A stretch of DNA of 64,000 nt from an uncultured Methanoregulaceae archaeon (lineage in GTDB: Archaea; Halobacteriota; Methanomicrobia; Methanomicrobiales; Methanospirillaceae), in the NCBI GenBank assembly GCA_963701095.1, contig OY969564.1, forward strand, positions 1 to 64,000, written 5' to 3'. A program made the translations under genes and the position numbers. The notes under the pieces were generated by a model. It made no database searches. It was not told the DNA's origin and was given only the letters and a program-made list of their open reading frames with translations. Within the stretch, counting starts at the first letter, position 1; each line of letters starts with the position of its first letter. Shown in pieces: positions 34,315-45,139 of the stretch.

Positions 34315-35300
34315 TCACCGGTATTTTTTCTGTTCGAGCACCGCATCGACTATCACAAGGGCGAGCATCGCTTCTGCCACCGGGATTATCCGGGGCACAA
34401 TACAGGGATCATGTCGCCCGCCAACGTTTATATCAACGACGTTTCCGTGGATGTCTCGTGTTTTCTGGGTCTTTGCAATGGATGGCGTTGGTTTGACGGC
34501 AATACGAACGACAATATCCTTGCCTGACGAAATGCCTCCAAGAATCCCCCCGGCATGGTTGGAGGCAAACCCGGTTTTGGTCATCTGGTCATTGTTCTCA
34601 CTTCCAAACCGCCCGGCAACAGCAAAACCATCACCTATTTCGACTCCTTTAACTGCACCGATTCCCATCATTGCACCGGCAAGTGCGGCGTCGAGTTTGC
34701 CGGAAACCGGGTCTCCCAGTCCTACCGGACAGCCGGACGCCACGATCTCTGCAATCCCTCCTACGGAGTCACCCGCATTTTTTACTGCAAGTATTTCCTG
34801 TTCAATTTCCCGGGTGGTGGTTTTCCCATGCACGGATATAATCCGGCCGGTCACCGCAATCCCGAAGCCGGAAAGGTACTTTAACGCAACTGCTCCTGCC
34901 GCTACCCGTCCTACGGTTTCCCTGCCCGAACTCCGTCCACCGCCCCGGTAATCGCGGATCCCGTATTTTTCCTGGTAGGTGAAATCTGCATGACCTGGAC
35001 GGAATTTTTCTTTGATTGCTGCGTAATCGCCTGAGTGCATATCCCGGTTCCTGACCAGTAACGCAATCGGAGATCCTGTAGTCATCCCCTCAAATACACC
35101 GGAGAGGATTTCGACTGTGTCAGTTTCGTTGCGGGCCGTTGTAAGGTCAGAAGTGCCCGGCGGCGCCGGTCAAGCAGAGGCTGGATATCTGCGGTAGATA
35201 ATGCGAGCTGTGCCGGGCATCCGTCAATTACCACCCCCACGGCCGGACCGTGGCTTTCCCCGAATGTTGTAACTGCAAAATTCCTGCCAAAGGTGTTCAT
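34315..35300 (-). CDS. aroC: Chorismate synthase (frameshift ~35090-35160)
   Basis: [41 protein letters not shown]. Confidence 0.95.
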
Positions 35301-36686
35301 GCCAATATCTCCCGTATGACCGTCTCGGGAACGTCTATCCCAAAGAAGAGACGGAACTGTTCGCGTGCCTGGTGGATAAAAACCTCAGTCCCGGTAATGG
35401 TTTTACATCCTGCTCTTCGGGCGGCTGCAATAAACGGTGTGACCGGAGGTGTATACACAAGATCAAATACGGTCATCTCCTTTTTGAGCTGATCGTCCCG
35501 AACCGGACTTGAGGTATCCGGGTCCATACCAACAGGTGTTGCGTTTACCACCAGATCCGGAGTTATTCCATCAAATGCGTCCCATGTGCGCCAGCTGCAA
35601 CCAAACCGTTTTGCAAGCGCCTGTGCTTTTCGTGGTGTCCGGTTCAGGATGATAACCTCCATATCAAGATCCAACAATGCATACGCTGCAGCCGCAGCAA
35701 CCCCTCCGGCACCGAGCGGTCCTGCACAAGATCCGGCCAGATTTTCAAGAGGTTTTCGTATCCCCTGCCAGTCGGTATTGCTGCCATACGTCTTTTCGCA
35801 GGCAAAAACAACCGTATTTACCGCCCCTATCTTTCGGGCTGACTCGTCGATCTCGTCAAGAAGAGCCATTATATCCTGTTTAAAGGGGATGGTAACCGAG
35901 AGCCCTTTTGCATCGATCTCCCGGGCTTTTTCCATGATAGTCTGTATTGACGGATCCCAGAACCGGGTGTAATGGCAGTTGAGCTGGTATTTCTCAAACA
36001 GCCTGTTAAAAAGCAGGGGACCTTTGCTGTGTCCACAGGGGCAGCCGGCAACACCGAGAAACCGGATCTGCGGGTCATACCGGGTGCCAACCAACAGGGA
36101 TTTCATCTGCTCCCGTTCCTGAACCGGGAGAGGGCTTGCTGCAAACCACCGGAAGACAGACTCCCGGGTCGGTGCAAAAACAGTACCTTTATCCAGAAGA
36201 CAAAGTATGTTGTCAGCTGCCTGTTCCGTCGATGTTCGGCTCGTGTCAACGCAAAAATCTGCAGCCGCAGCATAGTTGCATCGCCTGGAAGCGATTACGT
36301 GGGCGATCTCTTCTTCCGGAGGAAGACCGGTAAGGGGAGGCCGGGGAGATCGTGCCAGCCGGCGACCGATAGTCGCATGATCCGCGTGCAGGAGGACACC
36401 TATGCTTGCTGCACGAAGCTGTTCCATTTTTGCCGGATCCATCACGACGCCACCTCCGGTACTGACGATACAGTCTGATGAAGGAAGACTGGAAATCACT
36501 TCGCGTTCAAGGATCCGGAACCTCCTCTCCCCCTCATTACGGAATATCTCGGGGATTGTTTGGCCGCTCCTTTTTTCTACTAATTCGTCGGTGTCGATAA
36601 AAGCTCATCCCGAGCCGCCGGGCAAGAACGGTTCCGATAGCTGTTTTGCCCGTACCCCGGTATCCGAAGAGTACGATCCTTTTCAT
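35297..36686 (-). CDS. aroE: Shikimate kinase (bacterial AroK type) - shikimate dehydrogenase fusion (frameshift ~36600)
   Basis: Hand-translated start [15 protein letters not shown], then DTD, STGGG, RPPL; followed by [32 protein letters not shown]. Confidence 0.9.
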
Positions 36687-40552: not shown

Positions 40553-41336
40553 CTATTTCTGCTCCAGGGCTTTTTTCGGGTCGACGTTGTGGTGCACGAC
40601 ACGACAGATAGACTGGACAAATGCCCGGGTGTTGTCGCGCTGGAAGGCATTTCTTCCCATGCAGACACCTGCCCCCCCGGCTGCGATAGAGTCCCGGATC
40701 ATTTCAAGCGATTCAAGGTCGCTTATTTTTTCACCGCCAGCTGACAAAAACCGGTACCGAACAGGCTTTCGTGATCCGGGTAAATGCTTCAGGCGTCCCC
40801 GGGTAGCTGGTTTTAATCATGTCGGCGCCCAGTTCCTCGGCTACTCTTACACATTGGCCGATGGTCTGTGGCGATGCGGGATCGATACCTTTTCCCCGCG
40901 GGTAGATCATCACCAGGAGCGGGATGCCCCAGCGGTTGCAGTCCCGGACGATTTTTGCCCCGGATTCAAGCATTTTCGATTCGTTTGGAGCACCGAGGTT
41001 GATATGGATGGAGACCGCATCGGCGCCCAGAGCGATGGCCTCTTCAACAGAACAGACAAGCACCTTGTCGTTGGGGTCCGGGTTGAGTGAAGTACTTCCC
41101 GAGAGGTGCACAATAAGGCCGATGTCTCGGCCATGTCTCCGGTGACCTGTCTTGACCATACCCTTATGGAGGACGATAGCGTTTGCCCCGCCTTCACTGA
41201 TATCGGTTATTACTTTAGTCATATCAAGGAGGCCGTCAATCTGTCCCATGGAAAAACCATGGTCCATCGGTATAATCACCGAGCGTCCCGTGTTCCTGTC
41301 TATAATTCGTTCGATCCTGATTTCCTTTCCTACCAT
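40553..41336 (-). CDS. ADH synthase (aroA') / DhnA-type class I aldolase, copy 2 (frameshift ~40746)
   Basis: IPMDHG, GADAVSIHIN, YPRG, ELGADMIKT, AGG, GRNAFQ. Confidence 0.9.
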
Positions 41337-41346
41337 GATTTTTCCC

Positions 41347-42138
41347 TCACGCATTGAGAATTTTTAGCGCTTCCGTGACGCTCATATTCTGGTGCACGAT
41401 ACAGGCTGCCGCACGGACAAACTTGTCCGGTGTCCGGTGCTGGAAAGCATTCCGGCCAATCGAGATCCCGGCAGCTCCTCCCGCGATCGCGCCTTCAATC
41501 AGTTCAAGTGTTGTGCGGTCATCAGTCTTTGAACCTCCGGCAACAACAACTGGAACAGGGCAACCTCTGGTTACTTCGCGAAACGATTCCGGATCACCGG
41601 TATATACCGTTTTCACGATATCTGCCCCCAGCTCAGCTGCTACCCGGGCTGCGAGTTTAACCTGGTCGACATCATTTTCTTTTTTAATGTCCTTGCCTCG
41701 CGGGTACATCATTGCGAGCAATGGCATGCCCCATTCCATACATTCGATGGCGACATTTCCCAGATCCGAGAGCATCCGGGCTTCAGAATCTGCTCCGATA
41801 TTGACATGCATCGAGACCGCGTCAGCACCCATCCTGAGAGCGTTGGTTACAGAATTCACCAGCACTTTCTCGTTCGGATCCGGGGAGATCGAAGTACTTG
41901 CTGACAGATGCAGGATAAGCCCGATATCCCGGCCTCCCTGACGGTGACCGTAAAGGGCAAGGCCGACATGTCCTATAACGGCGTTCGCTCCACCGTCAGC
42001 AACGAGGTTAACTGCCTGCGACATATCAATAAGGCCCTGGATCGGGCCGTTTGTCACACCGTGATCCATCGGTACTATTACTGTTTTTTTCGTATTCCGG
42101 TTCATGATACGTTCCAGACGAATTTCTTTACCGCTCAT
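41347..42138 (-). CDS. ADH synthase (aroA') / DhnA-type class I aldolase, copy 1
   Basis: [42 protein letters not shown]. Confidence 0.92.
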
Positions 42139-42151
42139 AACAACAACAACT

Positions 42152-42192
42152 CCCCCTTCAGCCCTGAACAAGAGATCAGATATTGAAGGGAA
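42152..42192 (-). promoter_or_regulatory. Hairpin sequestering the SD of the first aro gene
   Basis: On the minus strand UUCCCUUCA (42192-42184) pairs with UGAAGGGGG (42160-42152), plus an inner UCUGA/UCAGG stem. SD GGGGGAG lies at 42156-42150. Confidence 0.6.
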
Positions 42193-42264
42193 TTACCGAT
42201 ACCAGGAATAAAACCTGAATCTAAAATAGCTAAAAAAACCGAAAACGCTAGAGCAAAGGCTCAT
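42193..42264 (-). CDS. Putative aromatic-amino-acid leader peptide
   Basis: MSLCSSVFGFFSYFRFRFYSWYR*: 6 Phe, 3 Tyr, 1 Trp; ends 54 nt before the operon's first ATG. Confidence 0.55.
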   Translation of the reverse strand: MSLCSSVFGFFSYFRFRFYSWYR

Positions 42265-42460
42265 AACGCATGTTTTTTCAGAAACGGGACTGATTATGCT
42301 CCGGACGGGTGCTGCGCTTTCAGAGATAAAGACATTCACGAGGGAAAAAACCCTCACGGGCGCTGGCGCACTCTTCCTGCATGATCATTTGTTTGGATTT
42401 GTGCCTATATAATTGTGTGTGCTAATGTGTAGCATGGCAGAAAAATATAACCTTATTCCA

Positions 42461-45139
42461 TTATTGTTTTCCGGTAAACCGGAATGATCCGGTCGGTACT
42501 GCCATCTCAAATCGTGCTCCTGCTCCGGGCTCTCCTGTTTCCCGGATCGTGATTCCGGTAAGGGAGAGGATTTCCCGGGCAAGGAAAAGACCGAGGCCGG
42601 TATTCTTCCCAAAACCACGATCGAATATCTTTTCCTTATACTCCTGGAGAACACCGACTCCGTCATCTTCACAGACAATAATCTCGTTTCCATTCTTCTC
42701 AGAAAGAGAGAACCGGATGGTGCTGATTTTTCCTCCATACCGGATCGCATTATCGACGAGATTGTAGATTACCTTGACAATTAACGGATCGGAAAAAACT
42801 TCTGCACCTGCGGGAATCTCGTTTTTTACCATGACATTTCCCAGCGACACCTGCCGTACTGCAGTTTCAGCAAGATTCCGTATGTCCTGCCATACAGGAT
42901 CTGTTTTCCGTACCGATTCGTATGCACTGGCAAACTGGATCATGGAGGAAATACGCGTGCTTACCTGAGAGATCCAGGTAAAATAATCCTCGACAGAAGG
43001 ATCCTTGACTTTTTCGTGAAGCAATTCAAGGAAACCATTCAATGCAAGAAGCTGGTTATTGATATCATGTCTGGTCACATGGGTGAGAAGAGCAAGGCTC
43101 CTATTAGCCTGCTGGAGCGCTTCTTCTGATCTACGGGATTCGGTTACGTCGCGGATAGCGCCGATTAATATTTCTTGTCCCTGGAAAGACATGACGTTTA
43201 CGGTAATTTCGACCGGGAAGACACTGCCGTCTTTTCTCTTATGATACCTGTCCCGTATAAATTTCGTCCTCTCTGCGATCGCGGAACGTGTAGCATCCGA
43301 CTCAGCGGAAAGGGCAGTTATAGGTAGTCCACGTAAGTCGTCAGTCAAATACCCATGCATGACTGCCAATGCATCGTTACAATCAATAATTTTCCCGGTT
43401 TTCTGGTCTATCAATGCAATACCGTCGGATTCAGCGGCAAATATACCCCTGAATTTCGCCTCACTTTCCATGAGAGCAGCTTCGATGCGTTTACGTTCCG
43501 TGATATCTGAACCGATGCTGAAGAGGCCGGTAAACTCACCGTTCTCATCAAACAGCGGTTTGTTGTACCACCGGATCCAGACACGCCTTCCGTAATGTGT
43601 TATATTCTCATTTTCATTGACAACGTAATTTTCAGGACGGCGGATAATATCCTCAATCATGTGAGCGAGACCCTTGTCCGATCCTGATTCACTGGCAGGA
43701 ACGATCGTTTCCATGACCGATCGTCCAATGATCTCATCACTGGAATAACCGAAGAACTCCAGGGCATATTCATTTGCGAAGGTAATTATGCCCGATTTAT
43801 CCCATTTTACGATTATACTGTTTGCGTTTTCGATCAATTCACGGTATTTTTCCTCGCTCTCCCGCAGCAATATTTCGGCCTGCTTCCTTCGGGTAATATC
43901 ACGGAGAATGACAAGTCCTGCGGGTTTACCCTGGTACCGGTAGGGTGCAATGGATGATTCGACGTTGATGGGGGTACCGTCAATTTTAAGGTATACTGAC
44001 TCACTAATGCCGCCAGGTTTCCCCTCTTTCATAACGTTCACTGCACGTTTGCGGATCTCTTCGTGATAAGAAGGATGGATCCGGTCGTAGAGTGATGTGT
44101 TCACAAGCTGATCTACAGATGTAGCACCCATGAGCCGGACCATCGCCGGATTAACATAGGCAAATGAATCACCGACAATAATATAAATGGCGTCAGGTGC
44201 CGCTTCGACAAGCTGTTGAAAATTCTCCTCGGTTTCCCGGATCAGGTTCTCTGTTCGTCCGAGCTCATCAAACTGGCTGCGCAGCTCTTCTTCGGAAGCA
44301 GCAATCTGCTCGTATGCGGCTCTCAGTTCAGTTTCAGCCCGTTTTTGTTCAGTTATGTCACGGATGGATTCAATTGCGCCTAAAATTTTTCCTTTATCAT
44401 CGAGAAGAAGGCTAGCTTTTGCCCAAAGATTGACATTTGTTCCATCAGGCCTCACAAAAGAGGTCTCCGCCATCAGCACCCTTCCACCGTGTATCGTATA
44501 GGTATAGTGTTCTTTCTCGAATACGGCATTCGGATCAAGGATGAGGTCAGCAAGCATCGGCCGGCGTTTTTGATATATTGTTAAAGCATGTTCGTAGTTA
44601 TTTTTTCCAAGAATTTCTGAAGGTCTGACCCCGGTCATTTCTTCCATCGCACGGTTCCACACAATAACCTTTCTCGATTTGTCAAGGACAAAGGTGGGGT
44701 CCGGCAGGAAATTGATGATATCGGTTTCACGGCGTTCATGTTCACGCAGCTGCGTCTCTGCCCATCTTTTCTGGACAGCGTGGCGGAGTTTGAATGCAAG
44801 CTCGGTAAACTGGGAAACGGGCTCGCCACCTTTCTGGAGATAGAAATCGGCACCTTCATTGAGTGCCTGAATGACGATCTCTTCCCTTCCTCTTCCGGTA
44901 AAAAGGATAAAGGGAATCGTTTTTCCTGAACTACGGACTTTTTTCAGGAATTCAATTCCATCAATCTCAGGCATCTGGTAATCGGAAACGATAGCGTCAT
45001 AGTTTTTTGTTGCCATCAGCACCAGTGCATCCCGTGCTGAGCTAATGATATCAACAGAAAACTGACCGCCCCGCTCAAGAAAAAGTTTTCCGATTTCAAG
45101 CATGGCCGATTCATCATCGACGTAGAGGATGGAAATCAT
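42461..45139 (-). CDS. Hybrid sensor: receiver - multiple PAS - histidine kinase
   Basis: LYVDDE..DYQMP..FTGRG..QKG; four PAS/PAC blocks (RDITE); TRHDINN, YNLVDNA, EDDGVG, TGLGL. Confidence 0.93.
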   Translation of the reverse strand: MISILYVDDESAMLEIGKLFLERGGQFSVDIISSARDALVLMATKNYDAIVSDYQMPEIDGIEFLKKVRSSGKTIPFILFTGRGREEIVIQALNEGADFYLQKGGEPVSQFTELAFKLRHAVQKRWAETQLREHERRETDIINFLPDPTFVLDKSRKVIVWNRAMEEMTGVRPSEILGKNNYEHALTIYQKRRPMLADLILDPNAVFEKEHYTYTIHGGRVLMAETSFVRPDGTNVNLWAKASLLLDDKGKILGAIESIRDITEQKRAETELRAAYEQIAASEEELRSQFDELGRTENLIRETEENFQQLVEAAPDAIYIIVGDSFAYVNPAMVRLMGATSVDQLVNTSLYDRIHPSYHEEIRKRAVNVMKEGKPGGISESVYLKIDGTPINVESSIAPYRYQGKPAGLVILRDITRRKQAEILLRESEEKYRELIENANSIIVKWDKSGIITFANEYALEFFGYSSDEIIGRSVMETIVPASESGSDKGLAHMIEDIIRRPENYVVNENENITHYGRRVWIRWYNKPLFDENGEFTGLFSIGSDITERKRIEAALMESEAKFRGIFAAESDGIALIDQKTGKIIDCNDALAVMHGYLTDDLRGLPITALSAESDATRSAIAERTKFIRDRYHKRKDGSVFPVEITVNVMSFQGQEILIGAIRDVTESRRSEEALQQANRSLALLTHVTRHDINNQLLALNGFLELLHEKVKDPSVEDYFTWISQVSTRISSMIQFASAYESVRKTDPVWQDIRNLAETAVRQVSLGNVMVKNEIPAGAEVFSDPLIVKVIYNLVDNAIRYGGKISTIRFSLSEKNGNEIIVCEDDGVGVLQEYKEKIFDRGFGKNTGLGLFLAREILSLTGITIRETGEPGAGARFEMAVPTGSFRFTGKQ

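Follow-up and report, generated by a model that had tools for sequence, protein, structure and literature searches.

A candidate ribosome-read leader with an aromatic codon tail in front of the aro operon of Methanomicrobiales

Introduction

Leader-peptide attenuation is a textbook mechanism of bacteria, which depends on coupled transcription and translation, and its classical transcription attenuators are pheL-pheA, trpL and hisL of E. coli. In the translational attenuation of ermC and cat, a ribosome stalled on the leader opens a hairpin that masks the downstream ribosome-binding site. The bacterial prfB gene carries the site CUU_UGA_C together with an upstream stimulator resembling a Shine-Dalgarno (SD) sequence. 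Here we describe a candidate archaeal element that could bring such features together. It occupies the intergenic region in front of the aromatic amino acid (aro) operon in a 64,000-nt stretch of DNA from an uncultured Methanoregulaceae archaeon (contig OY969564.1, positions 1 to 64,000; hereafter the window), where an open reading frame (ORF) ending in Phe, Tyr and Trp codons is followed by a hairpin near the SD sequence of aroA', the first gene of the operon.

The general model of leader attenuators is summarised in a preprint by Canestrari et al. (bioRxiv 10.1101/834739), which for the leaderless polycysteine small ORFs (sORFs) of mycobacteria, the Ms5788A class, describes a translational mode of action via SD availability. 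As for frameshifting, Atkins et al. (2016; PMC5009743) present the yeast Ty1/ABP140 site CUU_AGG_C, at which a slow A-site codon drives the shift, and describe 'hungry-codon' shifting, of which, they state, no utilised example is known. A leader-peptide attenuator from archaea was sought in published full texts, and none was found; a tool paper (PMC10219788) lists archaea among the domains with regulatory upstream ORFs, citing general reviews.

The aro leader is like pheL, trpL and hisL in being an upstream ORF rich in codons for the end products of the operon, on which the ribosome would sense charged tRNA, and in having an RNA structure right after the control codons. It differs from them in its single hairpin, which abuts the SD sequence with neither a terminator/antiterminator pair nor a U-run behind it. 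It is also archaeal, 42-91 codons long, mixed in its Phe, Tyr and Trp codons, probably leaderless and overlapped by a second frame. The terminator/antiterminator feature that defines attenuators of the trpL/pheL type is one that the aro leader fails to show.

Results

An aromatic codon tail precedes aroA' throughout Methanomicrobiales

An initial annotation of the window had placed a Phe/Tyr/Trp-rich leader peptide of 24 codons on the minus strand in front of the aromatic amino acid operon. Both the position and the composition were borne out: NCBIfam models identified aroA' onward to aroC downstream, and the last 16 codons of the ORF hold 10 aromatic ones, with all three residues occurring. 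Such a density is rare in this genome, in which only 29 of 3,054,383 stop-free 16-codon windows, counted in six frames, have at least 10 aromatic codons. When windows with at least nine aromatic codons of 16 were merged, 52 loci resulted, of which six end at a stop codon; among these six, only the locus analysed here adjoins a gene start, the other five being antisense or internal frames. The boundaries of the ORF fared less well. As a unit of 24 codons starting at ATG 42264 it is not conserved, since even the closest relative (L050) is without that ATG.

Upstream DNA was collected from related genomes by anchoring on the protein encoded by aroA', 2-amino-3,7-dideoxy-D-threo-hept-6-ulosonate (ADH) synthase. 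After the removal of duplicates, the set comprised 75 distinct 330-nt upstream regions bearing 16 genus and 6 family labels, all from one order, Methanomicrobiales. An ORF tail with 4-10 aromatic codons among its last 12 was present in all 47 loci having at least 200 nt upstream, and an aromatic-rich tail was likewise found in all 75 distinct regions. The median tail had 7 aromatic codons of 12, whereas dinucleotide-shuffled copies of the 330-nt regions gave 3.13; the enrichment reached p≤0.01 in 69 regions and p≤0.05 in 72 of the 75. The comparison with relatives that the initial annotation had suggested yielded a conserved, aromatic-rich ORF tail before aroA' in every region.

The enrichment belongs to one reading frame. 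Over the same 36 nt, the frame of the tail holds 575 aromatic codons, and the two alternative frames hold 118 and 157. Across the 75 regions, aromatic codons account for about 8% at codon -24, and their share climbs to 76-95% over codons -5 to -2; Trp is confined almost wholly to codons -2 and -3. Phe and Tyr are both present in all 75 tails, and 62 tails have all three aromatic residues. The composition of the tail is kept across the loci and its sequence is not, as examples from different loci illustrate: ..FSFYYRFYYWY*, ..FYRFFWYF*, ..YRYFNWFSQF*, ..FGYYRFFGYFG* and ..AFFFGYFYLF*. The leader stop codon also varies (UAA in 32, UGA in 32 and UAG in 11 regions).

The initial annotation had itself cautioned that U-rich DNA yields Phe and Tyr codons by chance. 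The tails consist of 31-61% T across the loci, and shuffles of the local composition still reach 4-5 aromatic codons of 12. However, when only the 51 nt around the tail were shuffled, which controls for U-richness, the real tails still surpassed the shuffles at p≤0.05 in 67 of the 75 regions. Furthermore, we looked at other classes of the same phylum as an outgroup. From 45 loci fetched, 14 of them without the anchor, 31 aroA' loci could be analysed, and none of the 31 had such a tail beside the gene; the best counts were 2-5 of 12, and a single count of 7 of 12 was located 270 nt from aroA'. The outgroup result is to be read as not found with the aroA' anchor rather than as absent, as the operon there may start with another gene. 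An origin of the aromatic ORF by chance in U-rich intergenic DNA is a next to negligible explanation and can be considered effectively refuted: the tail is frame-specific and order-wide, it beats global as well as local shuffles, and it was not found in the outgroup loci.

A hairpin with co-varying arms follows the leader stop

The hairpin that had been drawn immediately after the ORF stop was recovered by folding. In the window, it comprises 9 bp including two U-G pairs, plus an inner 5-bp stem; its free energy is -17.3 kcal/mol, which corresponds to a z-score of -2.55 relative to 100 dinucleotide shuffles. In the minimum-free-energy (MFE) folds of the 75 regions, the first paired base invariably lies 0-6 nt past the leader stop, and the median z-score of the hairpin MFE is -2.1. 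At 68 of the 75 loci, those with a short spacer, the hairpin abuts the SD sequence of aroA', and every one of these helices leaves 4-30 nt to the ATG, most often 16-17 nt in Methanoregula and 6-12 nt in the other lineages.

The arms vary by lineage yet remain complementary, as in CCCUUCA/UGAAGGG, CCCUCUG/CAGGGGG, UCCCGGAA/UUCCGGGA, UCCCGCCG/CGGCGGGGA, CCCAUUUU/AAAAUGGG and CUCCUCUCA/UGAGGGGAG. We quantified this with an alignment-free arm swap among 28 representatives hand-picked from the 75 regions. Cognate arms paired with a mean of -15.8 kcal/mol and swapped arms with -12.0 kcal/mol, and none of 10,000 permutations was as good as the cognate pairing (p=1e-4). An alignment restricted to the genus pointed in the same direction: the 16 proposed pairs were formed in 85.6% of the cells, as opposed to 37-68% when the register was slid by 1-3 columns, and 6 of the 16 pairs change on both sides. 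The swap test and the two-sided changes together bear out the covariation of the hairpin, which had been named as a check on the initial proposal.

A consensus structure could be obtained only within narrow limits. RNAalifold gave none across families for 64 stop-to-ATG segments, which MAFFT could not align, and just 5 pairs for the genus alone. A covariance model built from the genus hairpin matched 42 of the 75 sources, all of them of the Methanoregula type.

At the remaining seven loci, the hairpin lies farther from the gene: L003, L004 and L053 of Methanoregula, and L034, L038, L041 and L042 of family f4, where the tail of L042 ends at -106. In L003, L004 and L053, about 60 nt are inserted between the hairpin and aroA'; a new SD sequence, AAGGAG, is present, and the old G-run is still in the hairpin. 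The four family f4 loci have a much longer and more stable hairpin, for which three of them give z-scores between -4.8 and -9. After the hairpin of L038 and L041 comes UGUAUUUUUA, with a T5 run about 10 nt downstream of the hairpin.

The tail is the end of a long, probably translated frame

The aromatic tail terminates a much longer frame, here called frame B, which starts in a conserved 5' element at an RUG codon and spans 42-91 codons across the order. We used a frame-independent nucleotide anchor to pair the RTG with the aromatic stop. The distance between the two is a multiple of 3 and free of stops in 104 of 109 unique sequences, which fall into 24 length classes of 126-273 nt; a separate count by locus found frame B open in 76 of 86 loci. 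The five exceptions among the unique sequences are L047 and L048, in whose assemblies aroA' itself is frameshifted, and L136-L138. Insertions of 20-36 codons occur in frame, and the middle of frame B is hypervariable with large indels. Because all 24 lengths keep a multiple of 3 and remain stop-free, we read frame B as translated; by sequence, this indel pattern is a classical translation signature.

In Methanoregula, frame B starts with (A/G)UG AGG GUU UUU.., that is M/V-R-V-F-[SL]-P-V-N-V-F-I-S, and in other genera with GUG GUG AAU GUU UUU UCG CCG GUG.., that is V-[NDS]-V-F-S-P-V-x-V-F-I. The blocks RVF[SL]PVNVFIS, PARCIS and VSE are conserved within Methanoregula. A mid-leader block, UUUCUGAA (42277-42284, minus strand), is kept in Methanoregula and has the equivalent UUCUCUGA(A/C) in other families; its frame-B translation is (V/I)-S-E, and in frame A, the second frame described below, it contains a UGA.

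Such conserved blocks, together with a length of 42-91 codons that exceeds that of classical leaders, could also be expected of a small aromatic-rich protein with a function of its own, such as a membrane peptide or a storage peptide whose co-transcription with the aro genes is incidental. In a collection of 5.8 billion sequences, nine similar entries have been predicted as proteins, unnamed or 'hypothetical'. However, searches of Pfam and NCBIfam with the leader peptides returned no family, the tail conserves composition and not sequence, and the middle is hypervariable. Moreover, the stop is tied to the hairpin within 0-6 nt at the SD sequence of the next gene. As this link is tight and the position before aroA' is fixed in 16 genera, we favour a role in cis and regard a protein with its own function as very improbable.

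An AUG at the predicted transcription start opens a second frame

A second start codon precedes the RUG. With an anchor containing neither start codon, an AUG was found in 105 of 106 unique sequences and the RUG equally in 105 of 106. From the AUG to the RUG downstream of it, the distance is 25 nt in Methanoregula and 7 nt in other genera, so that the AUG is always in the frame one base behind frame B, which we call frame A. An A/T block precedes the AUG: among 42 sequences of the Methanoregula type, positions -31..-25 are 79-100% A/T, and among 27 from other genera, positions -31..-26 are 93-100% A/T. This spacing is the archaeal spacing between a TATA box and the transcription start site. 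From the TATA-to-AUG spacing, the mRNA is predicted to begin, probably, at or beside AUG 42382 and hence to be leaderless. Wetland metatranscriptome contigs of related Methanoregula (85-95% identity, compared over 41900-42480) cover the leader and aroA', which speaks for presence only; the end of one of them, at 42371, is some 10 nt away from the predicted start, a hint too weak to serve as evidence.

Frame A contains two conserved codon pairs (sites 1 and 2 in Table 1). The first, YUU-UUY, was found in 107 of 107 sequences (UUU UUC in 57, UUU UUU in 33 and CUU UUC in 17), and its alignment columns have zero entropy. The second, YUU-UAY, occurred in 104 of 107 (CUU UAU in 66, UUU UAU in 25, UUU UAC in 9 and CUU UAC in 4), so that UAU and UAC interchange while UUUA and the final C are invariant; this C is position 1 of a codon for a variable residue in frame A and position 3 in frame B. 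Each pair is flanked on its 5' side by GUGA(A/G)KGY, with an SD-like GGUGA/GAGG 2-4 nt upstream. Frame A then closes 1-2 codons past the Tyr codon in 93 of 104 sequences, compared with 11% expected from the stop density elsewhere in the leader (5.8% per codon). The stop itself varies among UAG, UAA and UGA, and the overlapping frame-B residues are free (T/S/L/A/V/P/G/H/D, then S/E/N/K/R). Because the stop is kept while these residues vary freely, selection seems to act on the frame-A stop. Frames A and B cannot be told apart by codon-position entropy in the 5' element (0.27/0.53/0.63).

Four genomes dispense with both U-runs, namely L023 and L027 of genus g7 and L038 and L041 of genus g10, and keep the TATA-AUG arrangement and the start M-x-G-E. 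By a hand count from the sequences, their tails are in frame with the 5' AUG, with 41 (L023), 41 (L027), 66 (L038) and 80 (L041) open codons. In L038 and L041, the GUG is still present, and its frame closes after a few codons. Because the tail is in frame with the AUG in all four genomes that are missing the U-runs, the 5' AUG is probably a working start codon in g7 and g10 and, by homology, elsewhere too.

In the other lineages, ribosomes may enter frame B by separate initiation at the RUG or by a +1 slip at YUU-UUY or YUU-UAY, and the sequence does not decide between the two. Initiation at the RUG explains the long frame as well as a slip does, save in the in-frame lineages g7 and g10. We tentatively put forward, at somewhat less than an even chance, that ribosomes always start at AUG 42382, that hungry Phe or Tyr codons would cause a +1 slip at 42349-42344 or 42331-42325, and that only the shifted ribosomes would open the hairpin. 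YUU-UUY and YUU-UAY may be sites of P-site re-pairing, on the assumption that the Phe or Tyr codon in the A site is slow under starvation. The empty A site would let the P-site tRNA slip, helped by the SD-like GGUGA/GAGG, and unshifted ribosomes would stop 1-2 codons later. Slippage draws support from three features: 105 of 106 sequences have the AUG where transcription is predicted to start, the frame-A stop appears selected, and the lineages without U-runs have their tail in frame with the AUG. It would also be in keeping with the features of the cassette as a whole, in which frame A closes soon past site 2 (93/104) and frame B is open to the aromatic stop (104/109). Transcriptional slippage on the U-run was considered as well and is unlikely, as some lineages carry only U4.

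The 5' domain could alternatively be a ligand- or protein-binding RNA in the style of a riboswitch or operator, extending from 42382 to about 42296, to which the open frames would be secondary. A block of about 45 nt is near-invariant across 6 families, including the final C of YUUUAYC, which neither frame explains; the element GUGA(A/G)KGY-YUUU forms a direct repeat, and the whole leader has a z-score of -2.88. A local 5' hairpin has the equivalent GGUGAA/UUCGCC in other families. RNAalifold, however, yielded only this hairpin, with 6 pairs and one-sided changes, none of them compensatory. Single-sequence folds often close the first ~75 nt by pairing the 5' end with a segment at about +66, a tentative long-range helix that we call P1. 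In 27 ungapped sequences from outside Methanoregula, its six pairs were formed in 83.3% of the cells (pair 5:69 being CG in 13, UA in 6 and UG in 2), which barely exceeds the 77.8% obtained when the register was slid by two; of 500 shuffles, between 17 and 29 were as good. Moreover, a search of Rfam (Rfam 15) with the minus strand of 41000-43500 gave no relevant match even at E≤10. An RNA domain would also leave unexplained the 24 multiple-of-3 lengths, the frame-specific aromatic tail and the selected frame-A stop; we therefore hold it to be improbable.

Three further readings of structures in the leader were discarded. A sigma-70 promoter and terminator scan, which is not applicable to archaea, called the 5' hairpin 'terminator-like', its loop and not its tail being U-rich. 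In the MFE structure of the window, the CUUUAUC block paired at long range with the start codons of aroA'; the partner sequences are not conserved in relatives. A box C/D or k-turn interpretation of the GUGAA/CUGAA motifs was dropped because the C-box consensus does not fit.

A ribosome-read leader as the proposed mechanism

We propose, with moderate confidence and on sequence comparison, that the element is a cis-acting regulator through which ribosomes would read the supply of aromatic amino acids for the aro operon. With a start at or beside AUG 42382, some 23 nt past the TATA box, a position derived from spacing, transcription would give a leaderless mRNA. Ribosomes would translate the leader, whose last 15-20 codons are mostly Phe, Tyr or Trp and which ends 0-6 nt before the SD-adjacent hairpin. 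When charged tRNA-Phe, -Tyr and -Trp are plentiful, the ribosome would reach the stop and leave, and the hairpin would close and hinder initiation at aroA'. When one of these tRNAs is scarce, the ribosome would dwell on the last aromatic codons and hold the 5' arm open, so that the SD sequence would be free and the operon translated. A ribosome protects about 12-15 nt 3' of its P site. The sensor that the initial annotation had envisaged is retained with respect to the tail (75/75), the hairpin at the stop (75/75) and the co-varying arms; its ORF boundaries were wrong and its role for the SD sequence was too simple.

The claim that the hairpin sequesters the SD sequence stands in part. In the window, 5 of the 7 SD nucleotides are paired, and in some families, e.g., L025 and L026, the SD sequence lies wholly inside the helix. 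Several observations, however, weigh against the mechanism as proposed. For the SD core, the median probability of being paired is 0.57, no higher than the 0.635 obtained when the upstream segment is shuffled, with p≤0.05 at just 1 of 68 loci. The Methanoregula helix, with CAGGGGG at its end, stops about 16 nt short of the ATG and takes in only about the first two G's of GGAGG. In 7 of the 75 regions, the hairpin lies 106-206 nt from the gene and cannot occlude the SD sequence there. The z-scores of the hairpins are moderate, reaching -2 or lower in 40 of 75. Most of the aromatic codons are 10-20 codons upstream, too far for a stalled ribosome to reach the hairpin, and the start of frame B has no SD sequence, being situated 7 or 25 nt from the predicted 5' end and behind a competing AUG. 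In addition, the related genomes that underlie the counts are not independent samples.

The ribosome could instead sense as proposed and act on transcription, the hairpin aiding termination or pausing of the archaeal RNA polymerase and the stalled ribosome causing read-through. Classical bacterial leaders work in this way, and the hairpins that are distant from the SD sequence at 7 of 75 loci, as well as the very stable ones of family f4 with the T5 run after them in L038 and L041, would suit such an output. On the other hand, a run of at least five T within 30 nt after the hairpin was found at 1 of the 68 short-spacer loci and at 2 of the 7 long-spacer loci (L038 and L041). No alternative antiterminator pairing was found either, and the 3' arm terminates within or beside the SD sequence at the majority of loci. 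Intrinsic termination in archaea rests on oligo-U and not on hairpins, which also counts against a transcriptional output. Overall, we judge a transcriptional output to be unlikely for the element. The suggestion made in the initial annotation, that the U7 tract formed by the Phe codons could act as a terminator, found no support in the loci with short spacers.

Because no oligo-U run follows the hairpin in 67 of the 68 short-spacer loci, an output at the level of translation fits better for most lineages; for genus g10, a transcriptional mode is possible, and the family f4 hairpin may be a transcriptional variant of the switch.

Layout of the locus and its genomic setting

The coordinates of the leader and its features are compiled in Table 1. 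The window locus is of the Methanoregula type (order Methanomicrobiales). A gene for a PAS histidine kinase on the minus strand ends at 42461, and 322 nt of intergenic region separate it from the ATG of aroA' at 42138. According to NCBIfam, aroA' is followed by a broken second copy of ADH synthase, DHQ synthase II, tyrA, pheA, aroA, a fusion of an aroK-like part with aroE, and aroC.

Table 1. Features of the aro leader and its surroundings in the window
Feature	Coordinates	Strand	Remarks
Inverted repeat TGCTA-CACAT-TAGCA, candidate transcription-factor operator	42420..42434	-	Directly upstream of the TATA box; kept in Methanoregula-type loci
TATA box TTATATAG of the leader/aro promoter	42405..42412	-	A/T block by comparison
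Invariant AUG at the predicted transcription start (leaderless, frame A)	42380..42382	-	Predicted from TATA spacing
Frame-A short ORF MQEECASAREGFFPRECLYL*	42320..42382	-	Homologous ORF of 14-26 codons in 107 unique sequences
Local 5' hairpin CGUGAGGG-U6-CCCUCGUG	42337..42358	-	Contains the frame-B GUG; site 1 in the loop
Frame-B leader ORF, GUG 42357 to UAA 42195-42193, 54 codons	42193..42357	-	Conserved long frame ending in the aromatic tail
Site 1, Phe pair UUU UUC (YUU-UUY)	42344..42349	-	On an invariant U4 run; would allow +1 re-pairing
Site 2, heptamer CUU UAU C (YUU-UAY-C)	42325..42331	-	Leu/Phe then Tyr in frame A; Ty1-like
Tentative long-range helix P1, 3' strand	42296..42312	-	Would pair with the mRNA 5' end, 42382-42368; single-sequence folds
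24-codon ORF of the initial annotation, MSLCSSVFGFFSYFRFRFYSWYR*	42193..42264 (ATG 42264, TAA 42195-42193)	-	3' part of frame B; ATG genome-specific
Aromatic tail FGFFSYFRFRFYSWYR, proposed control codons	42196..42243	-	10 of 16 codons F/Y/W
Hairpin directly after the leader stop	42152..42192	-	5' arm UUCCCUUCA 42192-42184; 3' arm UGAAGGGGG 42160-42152, overlapping the SD
Shine-Dalgarno sequence GGGGGAG of aroA'	42150..42156	-	3' arm of the hairpin holds 5 of 7 nt
SD-to-AUG spacer UUGUUGUUGUU	42139..42149	-	Conserved (G)UUGUUGUU repeat throughout Methanoregula
aroA' (ADH synthase)	41347..42138	-	First gene of the operon; NF005556, 392.6 bits, E 7.9e-118

The inverted repeat in Table 1 is probably a transcription-factor operator, through which the aro operon would be controlled at a second level, that of transcription; it lies outside the leader mechanism itself. 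L023 and L027 carry a related sequence, ATGCTATAGCAT, and L025 and L046 carry GCTATGCTATATCTTAGCC, in each case between the TATA box and the start.

Several genes of the operon are irregular in this assembly. The second ADH synthase paralogue (40562-41354, minus strand) is interrupted: residues 1-204 match with an in-frame TGA, and residues 198-259 are in another frame. This copy is intact in most relatives. The genome measures 2.63 Mb in a single contig and is 86% complete by marker genes, and because a single contig is only this complete, the break suggests indel errors of the assembly rather than a true pseudogene. The aroC ORF (34315-35300, minus strand) covers just positions 177-344 of the chorismate synthase profile and is thus split or truncated. 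In the ORF of 400 aa that precedes it (35297-36499, minus strand), a partial N-terminus resembling shikimate kinase is joined to a full aroE.

Elsewhere in the same genome, outside the window, the region upstream of trpE (about 1,519,060-1,519,085, plus strand) has two TGTACA boxes (AATAATGTACAAATATGTACAA); TGTACA is the TRP box bound by TrpY in Methanothermobacter. A Trp-rich leader was looked for upstream of trpE in this genome, and none was found. Because trpE has TGTACA boxes and no Trp-rich leader, the regulation of the trp operon seems to differ from that of the aro operon. A scan of the genome for other leaders rich in a single amino acid returned 43 noisy candidates.

Discussion

The aro leader is kept throughout Methanomicrobiales, in front of an operon for the archaeal (DKFP-type) aromatic pathway. 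If our proposal is true, archaea too would use the ribosome as a gauge of amino acids. The element accounts for an 'empty' intergenic region of about 320 nt and, as similar predicted proteins number only nine among 5.8 billion sequences, gives annotators a missing small ORF. It is also a concrete, mutable test object for culturable Methanomicrobiales.

The two-frame arrangement raises the question of whether starvation-induced frameshifting is used for regulation, and a slip at the conserved pairs, if true, would be a natural, utilised hungry-codon frameshift serving as an amino-acid sensor. The aro leader is like the +1 sites of Ty1 and prfB in having YUU_UAY_C and YUU_UUY, with a P-site codon that could re-pair on UUU, a 0-frame stop 1-2 codons on and an SD-like sequence upstream. 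It would differ from them in its slow codon, an ordinary codon for Phe or Tyr that would turn hungry during starvation, the shift at these sites being our proposal.

As in attenuators that mask an SD sequence, the leader ORF ends next to the 5' arm of the hairpin, here in 75 of 75 regions. In common with ermC and cat, a stalled leader ribosome would open a hairpin near the ribosome-binding site of the next gene. Their stall, however, is caused by a drug and the nascent peptide and acts through pairing among four segments, whereas for the aro leader we propose a stall on uncharged tRNA and see one hairpin.

By analogy, the mechanism proposed here comes closest to the mycobacterial leaderless polycysteine sORFs and is also close to the erm and cat leaders. 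The mycobacterial sORFs are bacterial, sense cysteine and use a single frame, whereas the aro leader is known from its sequence and would occlude the SD sequence only partially. Both have a short ORF as the first cistron, leaderless in mycobacteria and predicted to be so here, with a run of the cognate codons.

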